From positions 1 to 26,378 of the forward strand of contig JBBQRQ010000072.1 in NCBI GenBank assembly GCA_038214755.1: a stretch of 26,378 nt of DNA, written 5' to 3'. The DNA comes from Verrucomicrobiota bacterium. GTDB taxonomy: Bacteria > Verrucomicrobiota > Verrucomicrobiia > Limisphaerales > CANJXF01. Shown here piece after piece: positions 8,150-23,521 of this stretch. The first letter of the stretch is position 1. Each line of letters starts with the position of its first letter. The notes under the pieces are model-generated. The model did not search any database, was not told the origin of the DNA, and saw only the letters and a program-made list of their open reading frames with translations. The translations under genes were made by a program, and so were the position numbers.

Positions 8150-8222
8150 GTAGCCGCTGACGTAAAGAGGCGGATTCTCGGGTCTCTCTAATCGAAATCC
8201 GCCTCCTCACGTCGGCGGCTAC
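8150..8222. repeat. GTAG-type REP-like palindrome between convergent genes (may act as a terminator)
   Basis: GTAGCCGCTGACGTAAAGAGGCGGATT ... AATCCGCCTCCTCACGTCGGCGGCTAC: ~27-bp near-complementary arms, each with an internal hairpin. Confidence 0.85.
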
Positions 8223-13989: not shown

Positions 13990-14126
13990 CGCATCTTAAT
14001 TGTACCGCCAACCGATCAGACGTAGTGGGGCAGGCTTCCAGCCTGCCTGAGCGGGCATCTTGCCCGTGAATCAGCAGGGACTGGGGCTGGAAGCCCCATC
14101 GGCAGACAGGATGTCTGCCCCACTAG
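13990..14126. repeat. GTAG-type composite REP-like palindrome
   Basis: TAGTGGGGCAG (14023-14033) and CTGCCCCACTA (14115-14125) enclose four small hairpins (GCAGGCttccaGCCTGC; CGGGCAtctTGCCCG; GGGGCtggaaGCCCC; GGCAGACAggaTGTCTGCC); preceded by CGCATCTT. Confidence 0.85.
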
Positions 14127-15969: not shown

Positions 15970-16000
15970 AAAACCCCGCCCTTTCCGCCACTCGCATTAC

Positions 16001-17878
16001 TCATTCCACCGTCACGCTTTTGGCGAGGTTGCGCGGCTTGTCCACGTCGCAGCCGCGCGCCACGGCGATGTGATAGGCCAGGAGTTGCAGCGGAATAATC
16101 CCGAGCAACGGAAAAACCGGAGCAATCGTTTTCGGGATGAAGATGACGTCGTCGGCGATCCCGGATATTTTTTCATCGCCTTCAGTGGCGAGGGCAATAA
16201 TCGGACCTCGGCGCGCCTTCACCGTTTCGAGATTGCTCAAGACTTTTTCATACATCGCGCCGGTGGGAACGAGCACGACGGTCGGGCTGTTCTCGTCGAT
16301 GAGCGCGATGGGGCCGTGTTTCATTTCGGCGGCGGGATAACCTTCAGCGTGGATGTAGGAAATTTCCTTGAGCTTCAAAGCGCCTTCGAGCGCAACGGGA
16401 AAATTGATGAGCCGTCCGAGAAAATAAAAATCACGCGCCTGAGAATATTTTTTTGCCAGCCGATCAATTGCCTGGCTTTGGTCGAGCAATTTCTGGATTT
16501 GTTCCGGCACCGCTTCCAGCGCGCGGATGATTTGCAAACCATTACTCGAAGAAAGCATTCGAATTCGCCCCATCAACAGCGCGAGCATTGTCAGCACGGT
16601 GACCTGCGAAGTAAAAGCTTTGGTCGAAGCGACGCTGATTTCGGGCCCCGCGTGCAGATAAATTCCTCCGTCCGCCTCGCGCGCAATGGTGCTTCCCACC
16701 ACGTTACAAATCGCCATGACTCGGTGGCCGCGCCGCCGGGCTTCGCGCATTCCGGCAAGAGTGTCGGCGGTTTCGCCCGATTGAGTCAGGGCGAGAATGA
16801 GAGTGTTTTTTTCAATCGGCGAATTGCGGTAGCGAAATTCGCTGGCGTATTCCACTTCCGTTGGGACGTGGGCGAGTTCCTCGAAAAGATATTCGCCGAC
16901 GAGCGCGGAATGCCAGCTCGTCCCGCAAGCGGTAATCACGATCCGATCCACACAACGCAATTCCGCGATGCTCATGTTCAAGCCGCCGAAACGCGCTGTG
17001 GCTTCTTCGTGATCGATCCGCCCGCGCATCGCATTCTCGACGGTGCGCGGTTGCTCAAAAATTTCCTTGAGCATGTAGTGGGGAAATTTGCCGCGCTCGG
17101 TCGCTTCCGCATTGAATTCAATCTGGCTGATCTGGACGACGGCTGTGTCAAATCCCAGGCTCGTCACGTTGAAGCGATCCGCGCTCAAAGTGACCACGTC
17201 GTAATCATTCAAATAAATTGCCTGTCGCGTGTGCGCGACAATCGCGCCGGCATCGCTGGCCAGAAAATTTTCGCCTTCGCCCACGCCGACGATCAGTGGC
17301 GAACCGCGTCTTGCTCCAACAATCGTTCCCGGATGGTCGGCGCAAACCACCGCGATGCCATAGGTGCCGATGACTTCCCGCAACGCGTTCATCACCGCCC
17401 GCGTCAAAATGTGAATGTCGTTGCTCGAAGGCTCCACGTCCGCTTGTTGCCCGATTAACCGATCGTAATGTTCGCCAATTAACTGAGCCAGAACTTCGGT
17501 GTCAGTGGTCGAAGAAAAAGTGCGGCCGGACTTGAGGAGCCGGGCTTTGAGCGTGTCGTGATTTTCAATAATGCCATTATGCACCAAGGCGATGCGACCG
17601 GATTGATCCAGATGCGGATGGGAATTTTCGTCGGAAGGTTGCCCGTGCGTCGCCCAACGCGTGTGACCCACGCCAGTTTCTCCTGTTACAGGCCGCGTCT
17701 CGAGTAATTTGGCGAGACCATCATCGATCTTTCCTTTTTTTTTCCGAACCTGGACACCGGTCTTTTGCAAAATCGCCAGGCCCGCGCTGTCGTAACCGCG
17801 ATACTCCAGCCGCCGCAATCCTTCGAGGAGGATTGGGCTGGCTTGACGTTTCCCGACATATCCGACGATGCCGCACAT
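16001..17878 (-). CDS. glmS: Glutamine--fructose-6-phosphate transaminase (isomerizing)
   Basis: MCGIVG Ntn nucleophile, LEYRGYDSAG, GHTRWATHG, HNGIIEN, QSGETADT, VASTKAF, EGALKLKEISY, DKPRNLAKSVTVE. Confidence 0.98.
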   Translation of the reverse strand: MCGIVGYVGKRQASPILLEGLRRLEYRGYDSAGLAILQKTGVQVRKKKGKIDDGLAKLLETRPVTGETGVGHTRWATHGQPSDENSHPHLDQSGRIALVHNGIIENHDTLKARLLKSGRTFSSTTDTEVLAQLIGEHYDRLIGQQADVEPSSNDIHILTRAVMNALREVIGTYGIAVVCADHPGTIVGARRGSPLIVGVGEGENFLASDAGAIVAHTRQAIYLNDYDVVTLSADRFNVTSLGFDTAVVQISQIEFNAEATERGKFPHYMLKEIFEQPRTVENAMRGRIDHEEATARFGGLNMSIAELRCVDRIVITACGTSWHSALVGEYLFEELAHVPTEVEYASEFRYRNSPIEKNTLILALTQSGETADTLAGMREARRRGHRVMAICNVVGSTIAREADGGIYLHAGPEISVASTKAFTSQVTVLTMLALLMGRIRMLSSSNGLQIIRALEAVPEQIQKLLDQSQAIDRLAKKYSQARDFYFLGRLINFPVALEGALKLKEISYIHAEGYPAAEMKHGPIALIDENSPTVVLVPTGAMYEKVLSNLETVKARRGPIIALATEGDEKISGIADDVIFIPKTIAPVFPLLGIIPLQLLAYHIAVARGCDVDKPRNLAKSVTVE

Positions 17879-18023
17879 AGGTTTTCTGAATGACGAGCGA
17901 CTGAATTTCCAAACGGTCGCCAGAAGCGAACTAGTGAGTCAAGAGCGATGGCAGCGGAGCCTTTCAATCATTTCCAACGAACATCCATTTTCCACTTCAG
18001 CTTTTCGACGCTCAAAATCTACA

Positions 18024-18052
18024 ACGATCTTTTGTTGCATATGCAACAAAAG
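18024..18052. repeat. 29-bp direct repeat, left copy, palindromic
   Basis: ACGATCTTTTGTTGCATATGCAACAAAAG; 18027-18054 is a perfect 28-bp palindrome; identical to 18887-18915. Confidence 0.95.
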
Positions 18053-18093
18053 ATTGCATTCCTTTTTTTGCGCGATCCTGCCATTCTTCCGCA

Positions 18094-18885
18094 ATGCAGC
18101 CCAAAACCGAGGAGTTTCTGAACCTTCTGCTCTGGTCGGCTGACCAACTCTTGCGCCCCACCTTTCGCAACCTGACCGACTCCTACGAAGGCTGGGCCTA
18201 TCGCAATGGCCTCCTCCGCCAGACGGTTGCCTTGGAAAAGCAACAATTGCTGGAACGGGACGCCACTTCGCCGGATGACCGATTGTTTCGCCTTACGGCA
18301 CGGGGGAGGTTGCACGCTCTGGGCGGGCGCGACCCGGAGGAACGTTGGGCGCGACCATGGGACGGACAATGGCGGATGGTGCTCTTTGACGTGCCCATGG
18401 GACAGAACGCGCAACGCGAACGACTGCGCCGCTATCTCCGCGACAAAGGCTTCGGTCACTTGCAAAACAGCGTGTGGATAACACCCGATCCGCTGGCGGG
18501 GGAACGGCTGATTCTCGCCGGCGGAAAGATCAATGTGGAATCCCTTGTCCTCTTGGAAGCGCGGCCCTGCGCGGGGGAATCGGACGCGGAAATCGTGGCG
18601 GGCGCGTGGGACTACCCGCGCATCAACCGTGGTTATGCACGGCATCTCAAAGTGCTTGGGGAGCGACCGATGGGCGCATTGCGGAACGCCGCCGCGGCGA
18701 AGGTGTTGTTGCGCTGGTCACAGGCAGAGCGCGAGGCCTGGATGGATGTGGTGACGAACGACCCGCTGTTACCCGGCCGGATTCTGCCGTCGGATTATTT
18801 GGGCCAACAAGCGTGGCGGCGGCGGGTGGAAGTGCTGCGCGACGCCGGCCGACAACTCCGGACATTCCAACCACTCAAGAACTGA
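18094..18885 (+). CDS. PaaX-family protein (winged-helix-like N-terminus, Cas2-like middle domain, PaaX C-terminal-like domain)
   Basis: LEKQQLLER...FRLTARG; WDGQWRMVLFDVP...R.RLRRYL...GFGHLQNSVWITP; AWD...IN..Y and DPLLP..ILPSDYLG. No paa catabolic genes in the window. Confidence 0.8.
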   Translation: MQPKTEEFLNLLLWSADQLLRPTFRNLTDSYEGWAYRNGLLRQTVALEKQQLLERDATSPDDRLFRLTARGRLHALGGRDPEERWARPWDGQWRMVLFDVPMGQNAQRERLRRYLRDKGFGHLQNSVWITPDPLAGERLILAGGKINVESLVLLEARPCAGESDAEIVAGAWDYPRINRGYARHLKVLGERPMGALRNAAAAKVLLRWSQAEREAWMDVVTNDPLLPGRILPSDYLGQQAWRRRVEVLRDAGRQLRTFQPLKN

Positions 18886-18886
18886 G

Positions 18887-18915
18887 ACGATCTTTTGTTG
18901 CATATGCAACAAAAG
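18887..18915. repeat. 29-bp direct repeat, right copy, palindromic
   Basis: ACGATCTTTTGTTGCATATGCAACAAAAG starting one base after the TGA stop; 24-bp perfect palindrome at 18892-18915. Confidence 0.95.
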
Positions 18916-18975
18916 GTTGTTCGAGGAGACTCTCGGTTCAAACCATGATTGGAGGCAGCGATGAACTTCGTCCGA

Positions 18976-20358
18976 TCAAGCGCCCACTTGCTGTTTGATC
19001 GCGTCGCAGATTTTTTGGCTCCAACGATGGAGCACCGCGGCGTCGCGGCCTTCCATCAGCAAGCGCGCTTTGGGTTCCGTGCCGGAGTAACGCAGGAACA
19101 CGCGACCGCCCTCCGGTTTCACTTCCGCTTCCGCTTGCGCGACCGCATCCAACACGCCGTCGAGTTGGTCGAACGGTTTTTTTTCGCGGACACGAACATT
19201 GGAAATCAATTGGGGAAATCGCGTCCAGCAATCGACGAGTTCTGAAAGCGTTTTTCCGCGCGACTTCATGATGCGTAAAATTTGCAATGCGGCGACAAGT
19301 CCATCTCCAGTCGTGCCGTAGTCGCTGAAAATCAAATGGCCACTCTGTTCGCCGCCAAAATTAAATCCATTGCGCAACATTTCATCGATCACATTTCTGT
19401 CGCCCACTGGAGTTCGCACGATTTTTCCTCCCGCCGCGTGAATCGCAGCATCAACCCCAGCATTGCTCATCACCGTTGTGACCAAAGTTTTTTTGGCCAA
19501 ACGATTTTGCGCGAGCAGATCCAATCCGGCTACGGCCATGATGTCGTCGCCGTCGATCACATTCCCTTTTTCGTCGCAGAGAATCACCCGGTCAGCGTCG
19601 CCATCGTGCGCGATGCCGAGGTCGGCGCGCATCTCGCGAACTTTGCGCGCGAGATTTTCGGGGTGCATCGAACCGCAATCCTGGTTGATGTTCGTGCCGT
19701 TCGGTTGATTGCCGAAAACAAAAACTTCGGCGGCAAGCTCGCGCAAAACGCACGGCGTCGATTTGTAAGCTGCGCCGTGAGCGCAATCGACGACGATGCG
19801 CAAACCTTCCAGAGTCGAGCCGCGCGGAAAGGAGGCTTTGGCGAATTCGATGTAGCGGCCCAGCGCGTCGTCGATGCGCACCGCTTTTCCAATTTCGCCG
19901 GCGGTCGGGCGAATGTTTTCGATGTCGCCGCTGAAAACCAATTGTTCGATGCTCGCTTCGATATTGTCGTCGAGTTTGTAACCGTCGGCGCGAAAAAATT
20001 TTATGCCGTTGTCGTCATACGGATTGTGCGACGCGGTGATGACGATGCCGGCGTCAGCGCGCAAACTGCGAGTGACGTAGGCGACGCCGGGCGTGGGCAG
20101 AGGGCCGATAAATAAAACGTCCACGCCCATCGAGAGAATCCCGGACGAGAGCGCATTCTCCAACATGTAGCCGGAGAGCCGCGTGTCTTTGCCAATGACG
20201 ATTTGGTGTTTACCCCTCCCGCGCGGTTGAGTTTCGAGATGTTTGAAAACGTGAGCGGCGGCGCGGCCCAGTTTGAGCGCCGTTTCCGCCGTGACCGGTT
20301 CAACGTTGGCGGTCCCGCGAACGCCATCGGTGCCGAAGATTTTTTTGGGAGAAGTCAT
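18976..20358 (-). CDS. glmM: Phosphoglucosamine mutase
   Basis: FGTDGVRG, GKDTRLSGYMLE, catalytic TASHNP, metal loop DGDADR, GGEQSGH, RYSGTEP. Confidence 0.97.
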   Translation of the reverse strand: MTSPKKIFGTDGVRGTANVEPVTAETALKLGRAAAHVFKHLETQPRGRGKHQIVIGKDTRLSGYMLENALSSGILSMGVDVLFIGPLPTPGVAYVTRSLRADAGIVITASHNPYDDNGIKFFRADGYKLDDNIEASIEQLVFSGDIENIRPTAGEIGKAVRIDDALGRYIEFAKASFPRGSTLEGLRIVVDCAHGAAYKSTPCVLRELAAEVFVFGNQPNGTNINQDCGSMHPENLARKVREMRADLGIAHDGDADRVILCDEKGNVIDGDDIMAVAGLDLLAQNRLAKKTLVTTVMSNAGVDAAIHAAGGKIVRTPVGDRNVIDEMLRNGFNFGGEQSGHLIFSDYGTTGDGLVAALQILRIMKSRGKTLSELVDCWTRFPQLISNVRVREKKPFDQLDGVLDAVAQAEAEVKPEGGRVFLRYSGTEPKARLLMEGRDAAVLHRWSQKICDAIKQQVGA

Positions 20359-20833: not shown

Positions 20834-20982
20834 AACGCGAAGGCGCAAAGAAACCATGACACGACGACACCGGAGCGCCGGTTTGCAACCGGCTTAACCT
20901 CGGCGCCTTGACTAAAGCCGGTTCCAAACCGGCGCTCCATGGTGGGGATTTTTGCGCCTTCGCACCTTTGCCTCTTTGCGTT
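20834..20982. repeat. Nested element: GGAG-type REP-like pair inside inverted octamer-array arms
   Basis: Inner GGAGCGCCGGTTT...AAACCGGCGCTCC (20872-20938). Outer GCGAAGGCGCAAA (20837-20849) and TTTGCGCCTTCGC (20951-20963) are perfectly complementary, followed by more 8-mer units ending CTTTGCGTT. Confidence 0.85.
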
Positions 20983-21854: not shown

Positions 21855-21954
21855 TGTAGCGGCGCGTCTGTGACCGCCGCTGATTTGGTCTTAAATGGCG
21901 GCGCTCACAGAGACGCCGCTACAGATCAGTGCGGCATTCACAGACGCCGCTTCA
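21855..21954. repeat. GTAG-type REP-like palindrome with a third degenerate copy overlapping the folP stop
   Basis: TGTAGCGGCG (21855-21864) and CGCCGCTACA (21914-21923) are perfectly complementary; CGGCATTCACAGACGCCGCTTCA (21932-21954) resembles the right arm. Confidence 0.85.
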
Positions 21955-22856: not shown

Positions 22857-23177
22857 TTAGGCGTTTCGTTCGATGCGGTGATGCCAATATCCAGGCTCTC
22901 GGCTACAGTGCATGACGGCATAAATGGTGACGCGTTCCTGTTGCGACTCCCATCGGTAGTAAATGACGAACGGGAAGCGGCTGAAGACATAGCGCCGAAT
23001 CTCCGGCTCCTCGACAACGCGCCACCGAATTGGAGCGGCGACCAAGGTCGTGATAGCAAACTCGACAGCCGTAACAAATCCGTCCGCCACTTGGGCTGAA
23101 GCTTCGTGGAGATAGTAGTTCGCGGCTTCCTCATATTCGGAAAGTGCCTCGGGATGAAAACCGTAGCTCGTAGCCAT
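22857..23177 (-). CDS. Type II toxin, RelE/ParE family
   Basis: FHPEA..EY.EA..YY, IRRY...RFPFVIYY, I.AVMH.SREPGYW..R; its start overlaps the antitoxin stop (TGATG). Confidence 0.88.
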   Translation of the reverse strand: MATSYGFHPEALSEYEEAANYYLHEASAQVADGFVTAVEFAITTLVAAPIRWRVVEEPEIRRYVFSRFPFVIYYRWESQQERVTIYAVMHCSREPGYWHHRIERNA

Positions 23178-23425
23178 CAGTTTGGCGCGCGTGAAGGGGC
23201 CAGGAGTTGGCGAACCCGAGCAAGAGCGTCGTCGCCCGGAATAAGTGCGACCTCTCCAGACTCGACCTGCGCGACACGCCGACGAACCTCGGCAATCTGG
23301 GCCGCTGCGATGTCCGGTGGAATGTCGTGGGCGAGGCTCTCCATGATACGGTCGGCGAGTTCGGCGCGTTCAGGGGCAGAAAGCTGCTCTACCTTTTCGA
23401 GGATGTGTGAAACGGCTTGAGTCAT
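23177..23425 (-). CDS. Putative antitoxin, addiction module component (TIGR02574-like)
   Basis: 82 aa from ATG 23425; LSAPERAELADRIMESL and EVRRRVAQVESGEVALIP; directly upstream of the toxin; preceded by TTGCCC-N16-TATCCT. Confidence 0.85.
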   Translation of the reverse strand: MTQAVSHILEKVEQLSAPERAELADRIMESLAHDIPPDIAAAQIAEVRRRVAQVESGEVALIPGDDALARVRQLLAPSRAPN

Positions 23426-23521
23426 GAAATCAGGATAGAAGCGCTTTGGATTCGGGCAAGCGTGCAGACACCAAACCCGGTTGGCGCCTTGCTGAAAGAT
23501 TTGAAACATTGAGACGTACGG

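Follow-up and report, generated by a model that had tools for sequence, protein, structure and literature searches.

The window analysed here, 26,378 nucleotides of contig JBBQRQ010000072.1 from a Verrucomicrobiota genome (GCA_038214755.1), carries a gene for a PaaX-fold protein that lies between two copies of a palindromic repeat and is antisense to both glmS and glmM (Table 1). An exact 29-mer occurs at 18024-18052 and again at 18887-18915, a spacing of 863 bp, and 32 of 33 bp are identical when the comparison is extended. The palindrome is perfect over 28 bp at the left copy (18027-18054) and over 24 bp at the right one (18892-18915). Between the left 29-bp copy and the ATG there are 41 bases, and between the stop codon and the right copy there is one. 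All these features, including the enclosure of just one gene, had been described in an initial annotation made from the DNA letters, and all were confirmed. The extent of the repeat needed correction, the functional repeat being a 36-bp quasi-palindrome (L on the left, R on the right). The gene had looked GC-rich by eye; its GC content is indeed 62.6%, as against 56.0% for glmS, 56.5% for glmM, and 52.7% for the genome.

Table 1. Features of the palindrome-bounded unit and of its surroundings in the window.
Feature	Position	Strand	Remark
Left 36-bp quasi-palindrome (L)	18023..18058		Outer edge is the unit's left end; DNA hairpin -11.9 kcal/mol
Predicted -35 box, abutting L	18059..18064	+	TTG at -35 to -33 in 63-69% of 35 units
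Predicted -10 box, six bases before the ATG	18082..18087	+	Among 35 units, -11 is A in 77% and -7 is T in 86%
Gene for PaaX-fold protein, 263 aa	18094..18885	+	PaaX_M match and structure model
Asp99 codon (F-D-V-P), candidate catalytic residue	18388..18390	+	Family invariance
Gln124-Asn125-Ser126 codons (L-Q-x-S-V-W), Cas2/VapD-type turn motif	18463..18471	+	Q124 and S126 invariant
Right 36-bp quasi-palindrome (R)	18886..18921		Begins at the base after the stop codon; DNA hairpin -10.5 kcal/mol
Context of about 3.0 kb (glmS and unit) between glmM and DUF7338/YkuD genes	15970..18975		Only in this genome among those tested

Repeats can confuse assemblers, and the pair might in principle be an assembly artefact or a chance repeat. 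A contig of sequencing run X1, which was assembled separately, covers 17796-19874 with zero differing letters, so the duplication is no artefact of one assembler; X1 possibly represents the source sample and would then not be an independent sample. The chance expectation of an exact 29-mer pair in the window is about 1e-9, and the same layout was found in dozens of genomes. We give an artefact or a chance repeat next to no credence. The 29-mer occurs exactly twice in the window, but the repeat has more than two copies in the genome (5.1 Mb, 175 contigs), which has nine exact copies of a 24-bp core, seven of them on other contigs. Three further palindromes, with 1, 4, and 6 mismatches, were found on other contigs. 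The gene itself is present in this genome as one full copy and one internal fragment on contig C131.

The unit had been placed inside a conserved cdaA-cdaR-glmM-glmS cluster. This was not borne out: at 34 other glmM loci, glmM was never followed by glmS; in eight of these loci, the sequence runs out 400 bp or less after the stop codon. In three genomes of the same genus, a DUF7338 or YkuD gene lies within about 150 bp after glmM, with no palindrome there. Therefore, the segment of about 3.0 kb that holds glmS and the unit is peculiar to this genome. GlmS is 77% identical to the copy in G002, a genome of the same genus, and GlmM is 91% identical. GlmS was not found in six of eight same-genus genomes, and no unit gene or palindrome was found at 19 other glmS loci. 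These glmM and glmS tallies include one unpublished genome, G009, on which no claim rests. Fixation of the gene between glmM and glmS could be ruled out, since the units of relatives lie beside unrelated genes.

We asked how often homologues are flanked by palindromes. Once five duplicates and a copy with an internal deletion had been removed, the closer set comprised 56 full-length loci of the clade, 50 of them with both flanks; the best 17-pair dyad was scored and passed with at least 13 pairs. Palindromes were found on both sides in 35 of the 50 loci and on at least one side in 47, while none of 100 control windows and none of 26 ordinary PaaX loci had them on both sides. In a phylum-wide set, 20 of 400 other genomes matched and yielded 28 loci, 27 with both flanks; 17 of these had a left palindrome, 18 a right one, and 15 both (control windows, 1 of 55). 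This recurrence supports the earlier view of a self-contained repeat-gene-repeat unit.

The anatomy of the unit is fixed. The centre of L usually lies 54 bp upstream of the start codon, the palindrome centres are 819-1059 bp apart, and exactly one gene is enclosed, with no adjacent antitoxin gene. The palindrome is about 36 bp long across the phylum, while its sequence changes completely between units: L and R have 30.3 of 34 bases in common within one unit and 19.4 of 34 between units, where related units are not independent. No conserved tetranucleotide tag of the REP GTAG kind was found beyond position 18 outward of L (n = 43) or in the flanks of the palindromes in genome G068 (n = 69).

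The position of L suggests a role in the expression of the gene. Shine-Dalgarno-like words were found in 2 of 35 unit leaders, and the mRNA is predicted to be leaderless. Because L abuts the TTG of the -35 box, the start codon follows six bases after a -10-like box, and Shine-Dalgarno-like words are few, autorepression of a leaderless promoter through L is likely.

The palindromes appear to be kept symmetric rather than constant. Among 84 palindromes, the commonest base at positions 11-13 from the centre accounts for 44-57%, yet these positions are symmetric in 86-96%. When the four arms of each of 34 units were compared over 510 positions, 422 agreed in all four arms and 52 differed in one. 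Of the 28 positions with a two-two split, 21 kept each palindrome self-symmetric, whereas four showed the direct and three the inverted pattern. This is unlike the remains of a plain target duplication or of inverted ends, and it does not support an origin of the two copies by plain direct duplication. The pattern fits a hairpin or cruciform substrate, and it also fits template switching independent of any enzyme of the unit. Template-switch repair is able to make quasi-palindromes symmetric without a dedicated enzyme.

The initial annotation also raised co-variation between the palindrome and the winged helix. None was detected, the partial correlation between the inner hexamer and residues 21-50, where the recognition helix is predicted, being 0.03. 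For residues 1-20 and for the Cas2-like domain, the values were 0.31-0.32, which are weak and confounded by kinship. The ends of the palindrome are more conserved than its inner part. This is in line with the widely spaced operator of PaaX, TGATTC-N27-GAATCA (PMC9493321), with which the analogy would place the contacts at the ends.

The 263-residue protein is predicted to consist of a winged helix (about aa 20-76), a Cas2-like domain (aa 87-167), and a helical C-terminal domain (aa 172-255). Pfam PaaX_M matched with E 5.7e-18, PaaX_C stayed below its cut-off, and the PaaX N-terminal model did not match; the score against TIGR02277 was 55.9 bits, below the equivalog cut-off of 264.55. Cas2 and VapD profiles matched weakly, and Cas2 HMMs matched up to 16 of 23 family members. 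The structure model (pLDDT 79, with low confidence in the N-terminal part) matched E. coli PaaX (8a39) and Rv0674 (3kfw) along almost its full length, with Z 12.7 each; the alignment to 8a39 covers residues 10-258 with rmsd 6.7 (Foldseek E 1e-9). The middle domain matched Cas2 8ia4 with Z 9.3 and rmsd 3.1 over 74 residues. The homodimer prediction scored 0.41 against a mark of 0.42.

Retention of the aspartate in F-D-V-P, a point of the initial annotation, turned out to be a property of the family as a whole. Asp99 is invariant in 23 of 23 closer members and in 22 of 22 distant ones, down to 24% identity, as are R108, G121, Q124, and S126; no Asp is found at this position in the 26 ordinary PaaX loci. 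Of 205 long homologues in which this region could be read, 200 have the Q-x-S motif; Gln is present in none of 25 readable ordinary PaaX proteins. The PaaX 8a39 and Rv0674 3kfw structures also lack the Asp and the Gln at these positions. Judging from motif and secondary structure, D99 and S126 would correspond to D7 and S43 of the VapD protein HP0315, where D7A and S43A lower the RNase activity, and in the Cas2 protein SSO1404 the catalytic residue is D10 (PMC3351183). E155 is nearly invariant in the 23 closer members, not in the 22 distant ones, and may be a second acidic residue comparable to D76 of HP0315.

Among the Pfam, NCBIfam, and PADLOC profiles, only PaaX, Cas2, and VapD models matched, apart from one weak CARF match; there was no match to HUH, DDE, tyrosine-recombinase, or serine-recombinase families. 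Y1_Tnp in particular had no Pfam match, and no histidine is invariant in either family alignment (23 and 22 members). No transposase or recombinase fold was among the structural matches listed. No Rfam model matched near its gathering score. Neither cas1 among the window or flank genes nor an array with unique spacers was found, so a CRISPR adaptation module was rejected. The lack of paa genes, reported for the window, extends to relatives (none among 100 flanking frames).

The sites of the unit are scattered. Of 103 flanking reading frames, 100 were scanned and fell into dozens of unrelated families; one unit sits between gyrB- and gyrA-type genes. The GC content of the gene hardly follows that of its flanks (r 0.14, 54 units). 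The protein is present, fragments included, in 29 of 101 genomes of the order, and in one of eight same-genus genomes, there as a remnant. In G149, an orthologous site has flanks of 86% identity, lacks a palindrome, and is shorter by about 1.0 kb. Together with the glmM sites of the genus, which carry no solo palindrome, this site argues that a resident palindrome is not a required target.

Distant hosts carry closely similar units. The protein at locus L083 is 84% identical to the focal one, and the GlmM of the same genome is 65% identical. The genes at L062 and L083 have 95% DNA identity and unrelated left flanks. By these comparisons the unit appears to cross orders at 95% DNA identity, with the reservation that the L083 contig is possibly misbinned. 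In a quick version of the protein tree, 3 of 47 branches were strongly supported, and the tree was not taken as proof of transfer. Two close genomes retain the unit at one site, so that vertical inheritance is also possible.

The left boundary is exact. Among 11 close units (55 pairs), identity is 0.82 at position -17 and about 0.25 beyond the outer edge of L. Among the 14 closest pairs listed, homology stops at the outer edge of L with two exceptions, which are pairs with a common IS200-like remnant or a common site. On the right, homology ends at the edge of R in some pairs and 10-40 bp beyond it in one subfamily. The 3' end or a fragment of ubiD was found near 14 of 29 close loci, compared with 2 of 40 distant ones, and was antisense to the gene in 15 of 16; it lies upstream of the unit in three loci and on C131. 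This pattern suggests capture of right-hand flanks and circular permutation, although Campbell-type integration at ubiD would look similar.

Co-resident copies of the gene were compared in 13 genomes (31 pairs); their amino acid identity did not exceed 80%, and near-identical full copies within one genome were not found among them. With this, and with no match to a known transposase or recombinase family, a classical insertion sequence was rejected. Neither an 863-bp circle nor a skip junction was seen among the joints listed in the X1 contigs, which drop rare forms. No pair of filled and empty sites was exact to the base, as G149, three solo sites of the G103 genus, and a pair 98.8% identical all had replaced intergenic DNA. 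No copy of the gene was found in the viral, phage, and plasmid collections, where four distant PaaX-type matches lay on plasmids and one solo palindrome on viral contigs. We nevertheless consider the unit itself very probably mobile.

Palindromes also occur without the gene, as a genome-wide count of solo copies revealed. Searching 101 genomes for a 22-bp core with up to two mismatches gave hits in 17, of which 14 belong to the 29 with a protein match, and no hit for the reversed control pattern. Positive genomes have 1 to 75 copies, with 11 in the focal genome and 75 in G068. In metagenomes, at least 123 loci were found, and 10 of the 80 examined had a piece of the gene. That solos are decayed units was rejected, because a 3' remnant of the gene was found on none of 499 solo sides.

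Such dispersed sites might mark the regulon of an ordinary transcription factor with a second operator or a terminator after its own gene. The PaaX fold and the contact of L with the predicted -35 box agree with this explanation. Four solo sites in a genus of six genomes are common to close genomes, and the 12 sites listed in the focal genome all look intergenic or near gene ends. On the other hand, the solo counts range from 0 to 75 among relatives, two sites of G103 have no palindrome in three close genomes, the neighbouring genes have no common function, and solos are present in 3 of 72 genomes without a protein match. We therefore regard an ordinary regulator as very improbable.

In G068, the palindromes often come as doublets: 36 sites comprised 13 single, 18 double, and five larger ones, and the spacing was 76 bp in 21 of 29 gaps. 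Their linkers are similar to one another and reappear at several places in the genome, for which reason we rejected CRISPR-like mini arrays. Doublets and linkers are much like the BIME mosaics described in PMC3333891. The mean score for IHF-like sites was up to 4.4 of 9 in the G068 linkers and about 2.4 elsewhere; no such sites were found in the flanks of units, and we gave this signal no weight.

The spread of these palindromes could also be the work of host enzymes. In this alternative, the protein only binds DNA and represses its own gene, HUH enzymes of the host (RAYT or IS200) or MITE shells move the palindromes, and the gene is gained and lost by crossing-over between palindromes. Host Y1 transposases could move hairpins in trans, and the host genome has 17 Y1-transposase matches. 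Many solos lie inside a second composite repeat, and IS200-like remnants, recognised by eye, adjoin L at L064 and L083. In G068, one solo joins the left arm of a doublet's first copy to the right arm of its second copy and has the same flank. But a protein that only binds needs no invariant D99, Q124, and S126, which ordinary PaaX dropped. Nor is there a conserved asymmetric tag beside the palindromes, and wholly different palindrome sequences keep their length and position across the phylum. We think this alternative improbable, although it deserves to be taken seriously.

Some units share a palindrome in tandem. Three of 66 units have the 3' end of an older unit 15-18 bp upstream of L (one weak match in 50 for a far control), so that the palindrome between them is both the R of the older unit and the L of the newer one. 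On the downstream side, one of 60 units has a remnant beyond its R, and this remnant carries an R as well. The remnant at L346 is 87% identical to the adjacent gene and is therefore not a duplicate of it. Very different units were found at the same site, behind mutS (56% aa identity), uvrD (49% aa identity), and also ubiD. Of the remnants away from contig ends, seven are cut at the 5' end only, two at both ends, and one at the 3' end only, by a frameshift.

Loss of the promoter end in most remnants is what would be expected of an addiction or abortive-infection system, in which a VapD-like RNase is silenced by its own palindromes as a DNA antitoxin and is released by loss of the site or by breakdown of host DNA. 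Such a unit would travel by transformation and host recombination, with the solos acting as sinks. Retention of the Asp/Gln/Ser residues only in the palindrome-flanked family speaks for it, as do the patchy presence, the frequent broken copies, and the co-residence of divergent copies only. Genes for GmrSD and an ADP-ribosylglycohydrolase lie beside two units, and the characterised VapD and Cas2 proteins of PMC3351183 are RNases. By itself, however, addiction leaves the exact left boundary, the palindrome-sharing tandems, and the 76-bp doublets unexplained. Moreover, PADLOC returned Cas2 models only, apart from the CARF match, and the neighbours are mostly housekeeping or metabolic genes. We judge addiction unlikely, and about as probable as movement by host enzymes.

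The explanation we prefer, held with a little less than even confidence, is a horizontally mobile one-gene unit between cognate 36-bp palindromes. Its PaaX-fold protein probably binds the palindromes and, from L, probably represses its own leaderless promoter; it is predicted to cut or rejoin DNA there through its retained Cas2/VapD-type site, which would make the unit similar to a REPtron with a non-HUH protein. A dimer would grip both ends of the palindrome, much as PaaX grips its operator, and the palindrome would work as a hairpin or cruciform, as suggested by symmetry that is kept where the sequence varies. Transfer would start with a break at L and run across the gene as far as R; at times it would overrun R and carry adjacent DNA with it, for instance the 3' end of ubiD. 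Resident palindromes may serve as landing sites. Loss of the gene with one palindrome would leave a solo, and further dispersal of solos and doublets would take place in part within other repeats. Similar newcomers would be kept out by a resident copy, in agreement with the lack of close duplicates within a genome.

The doubt lies in the catalyst rather than in the mobility. The nucleases of the Cas2/VapD fold that are named in PMC3351183 cut RNA. HUH enzymes make up all the characterised partners of REP-type palindromes that PMC3333891 and PMC5581495 describe. A full-text search, covering chiefly the main texts of papers available without subscription, found no paper on PaaX together with Cas2, palindromes, mobile elements, or Verrucomicrobia. 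We know of no nuclease of the Cas2/VapD fold that joins DNA. The more specific claim is that the protein with the PaaX/Cas2 fold acts as transposase or recombinase and that the unit stands for a new class of minimal mobile elements. The protein would cut at the edge of its 36-bp hairpin, carry DNA bounded by palindromes from genome to genome, give rise to REP-like repeats, and build arrays in which palindromes and genes alternate. We put this claim forward tentatively and are more inclined to doubt it than to accept it.

The unit resembles a REPtron in that a single gene is flanked by cognate palindromes of 30-40 bp, that the same palindromes are dispersed between genes as singles, doublets, and short arrays with few linker types, and that close duplicates of the gene within a genome are lacking. 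It differs in that the protein is no HUH/Y1 enzyme and that the palindromes are nearly perfect, loopless, and free of a GTAG-like tag. RAYTs are mostly inherited vertically according to PMC3333891 and PMC5581495, whereas the unit changes site and host. With PaaX, the phenylacetyl-CoA-responsive repressor (PDB 8a39, 3l09), the family has in common the three-part fold over the whole chain, the W-D-G-x-W and D-P-L-L-P motifs, and a long dyad site (39 bp in PaaX, 36 bp here; PMC9493321), and the repression by PaaX of its own promoter parallels the autorepression predicted here. Unlike PaaX, the family scores far below the TIGR02277 cut-off, has no paa genes nearby, has sites on both sides of a mobile gene, and keeps the Asp/Gln/Ser residues, of which PaaX has lost Asp and Gln. 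The likeness to Cas2 and VapD consists in the fold of the middle domain and, by motif and secondary structure, in F-D and Q-x-S at the positions of F6-D7 and Q41-S43 of HP0315 (PMC3351183). In contrast to those proteins, the domain is fused between a DNA-binding and a helical domain, its nuclease activity is a candidate one, and neither cas1 nor an array nor an antitoxin gene belongs to the unit. The combination of an exact end with a leaky one, which takes adjacent DNA along, recalls the IS91/ISCR rolling-circle elements. Those elements have an HUH transposase and dissimilar ends, whereas the unit has the same palindrome at both ends.

If the preferred reading is true, the unit is a small mobile element of a new kind. 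The placing of a gene between palindromes would then have arisen twice, in unrelated protein families. The second of these would provide a new DNA-rearranging chemistry in a protein of 263 residues with a self-declared, diversifying 36-bp site, and it makes the role of a Cas2-type acidic site outside CRISPR, as well as the origin of dispersed bacterial palindromes, testable with one small protein. Many of the annotated PaaX regulators (1742 matches, ordinary PaaX included) would have to be re-annotated in genomes without phenylacetate genes. If the more specific claim of a transposase or recombinase also holds, PaaX repressors that sense a ligand would be descendants that were domesticated and lost catalysis, and Cas2, so far a scaffold in an integrase that duplicates repeats, would gain a free-living selfish relative at 36-bp palindromic repeats.

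The 3′ end of ubiD is a hot spot for close PaaX/Cas2-like units, that is, for genes of this type between left and right palindromes. The close units are convergent to the ubiD 3′ end, often with one variable cargo gene in between, and 3′ fragments of ubiD are duplicated or dispersed (Table). In the source genome, G000, ubiD pieces lie on five contigs; some of the pieces are broken up by REP-like inserts and one is fused to a fragment of the PaaX-like gene.

Other repeats were also seen. The hairpin cargo of a composite repeat shell is interchangeable: it is either the unit-type palindrome or REP doublets of another kind. Long perfect palindromes of a second family, 18–32 bp in length with a core containing TTTGCAAA, have at least nine copies in G000. 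The window itself holds four REP-like inverted-repeat doublets, all from families other than that of the unit palindrome.

Transposase-related DNA was found beside the palindromes. At one locus in a relative (G103), a DDE_3 transposase insertion lies 3 bases outside the left palindrome; the matching site in another relative, G104, has no such insertion. In several units, 5′ remnants of an IS200/RAYT-like transposase, read by eye, adjoin a palindrome. At a further locus, L199, two palindromes lie 770 bp apart and enclose no gene. Similar DNA precedes each of them and resembles a degraded 3′ end of a PaaX-like gene.

Locations of the features (G, genome, with G000 the source genome; C, contig of the genome named; L, locus compared)
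Feature	Genome or window	Location
Close units at ubiD 3′ end		L003, L004, L021, L023, L029, L062, L063, L064, L066, L069, L070, L073, L074, L078, L083, L103
ubiD pieces	G000	C39, C77, C80, C131, C175
Composite repeat shell	G000	C22:37271, C54:25334, C82:21026, C78:7757
Composite repeat shell		L204–L247
Second palindrome family	G000	C37:26890, C58:20769, C80:20157 and 20350, C5:30192, C118, C9
REP-like doublets	Window	8150–8222, 14023–14125, 20872–20938, 21855–21923
DDE_3 insertion	G103	C122:15279–16496 (L067)
IS200/RAYT-like 5′ remnants		L064 and L083 (upstream of left palindrome); L313, L327
Palindromes without gene	G084	C23:9390–10181 (L199)
glmS	Window	16001–17878
Presumed antitoxin-like and RelE/ParE-like pair	Window	22857–23509

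Elsewhere in the window, two genes adjoined by folP encode 110 and 106 amino acids; from their translations, we take them to be a small antitoxin-like gene and a RelE/ParE-like gene. The glmS gene differs from its same-genus counterparts to an unusual degree (77% and 72%, versus 91% for GlmM). It was not found in six of the eight same-genus genomes, two of which were >90% complete and one 90% complete. The glmS gene of the window was possibly acquired.
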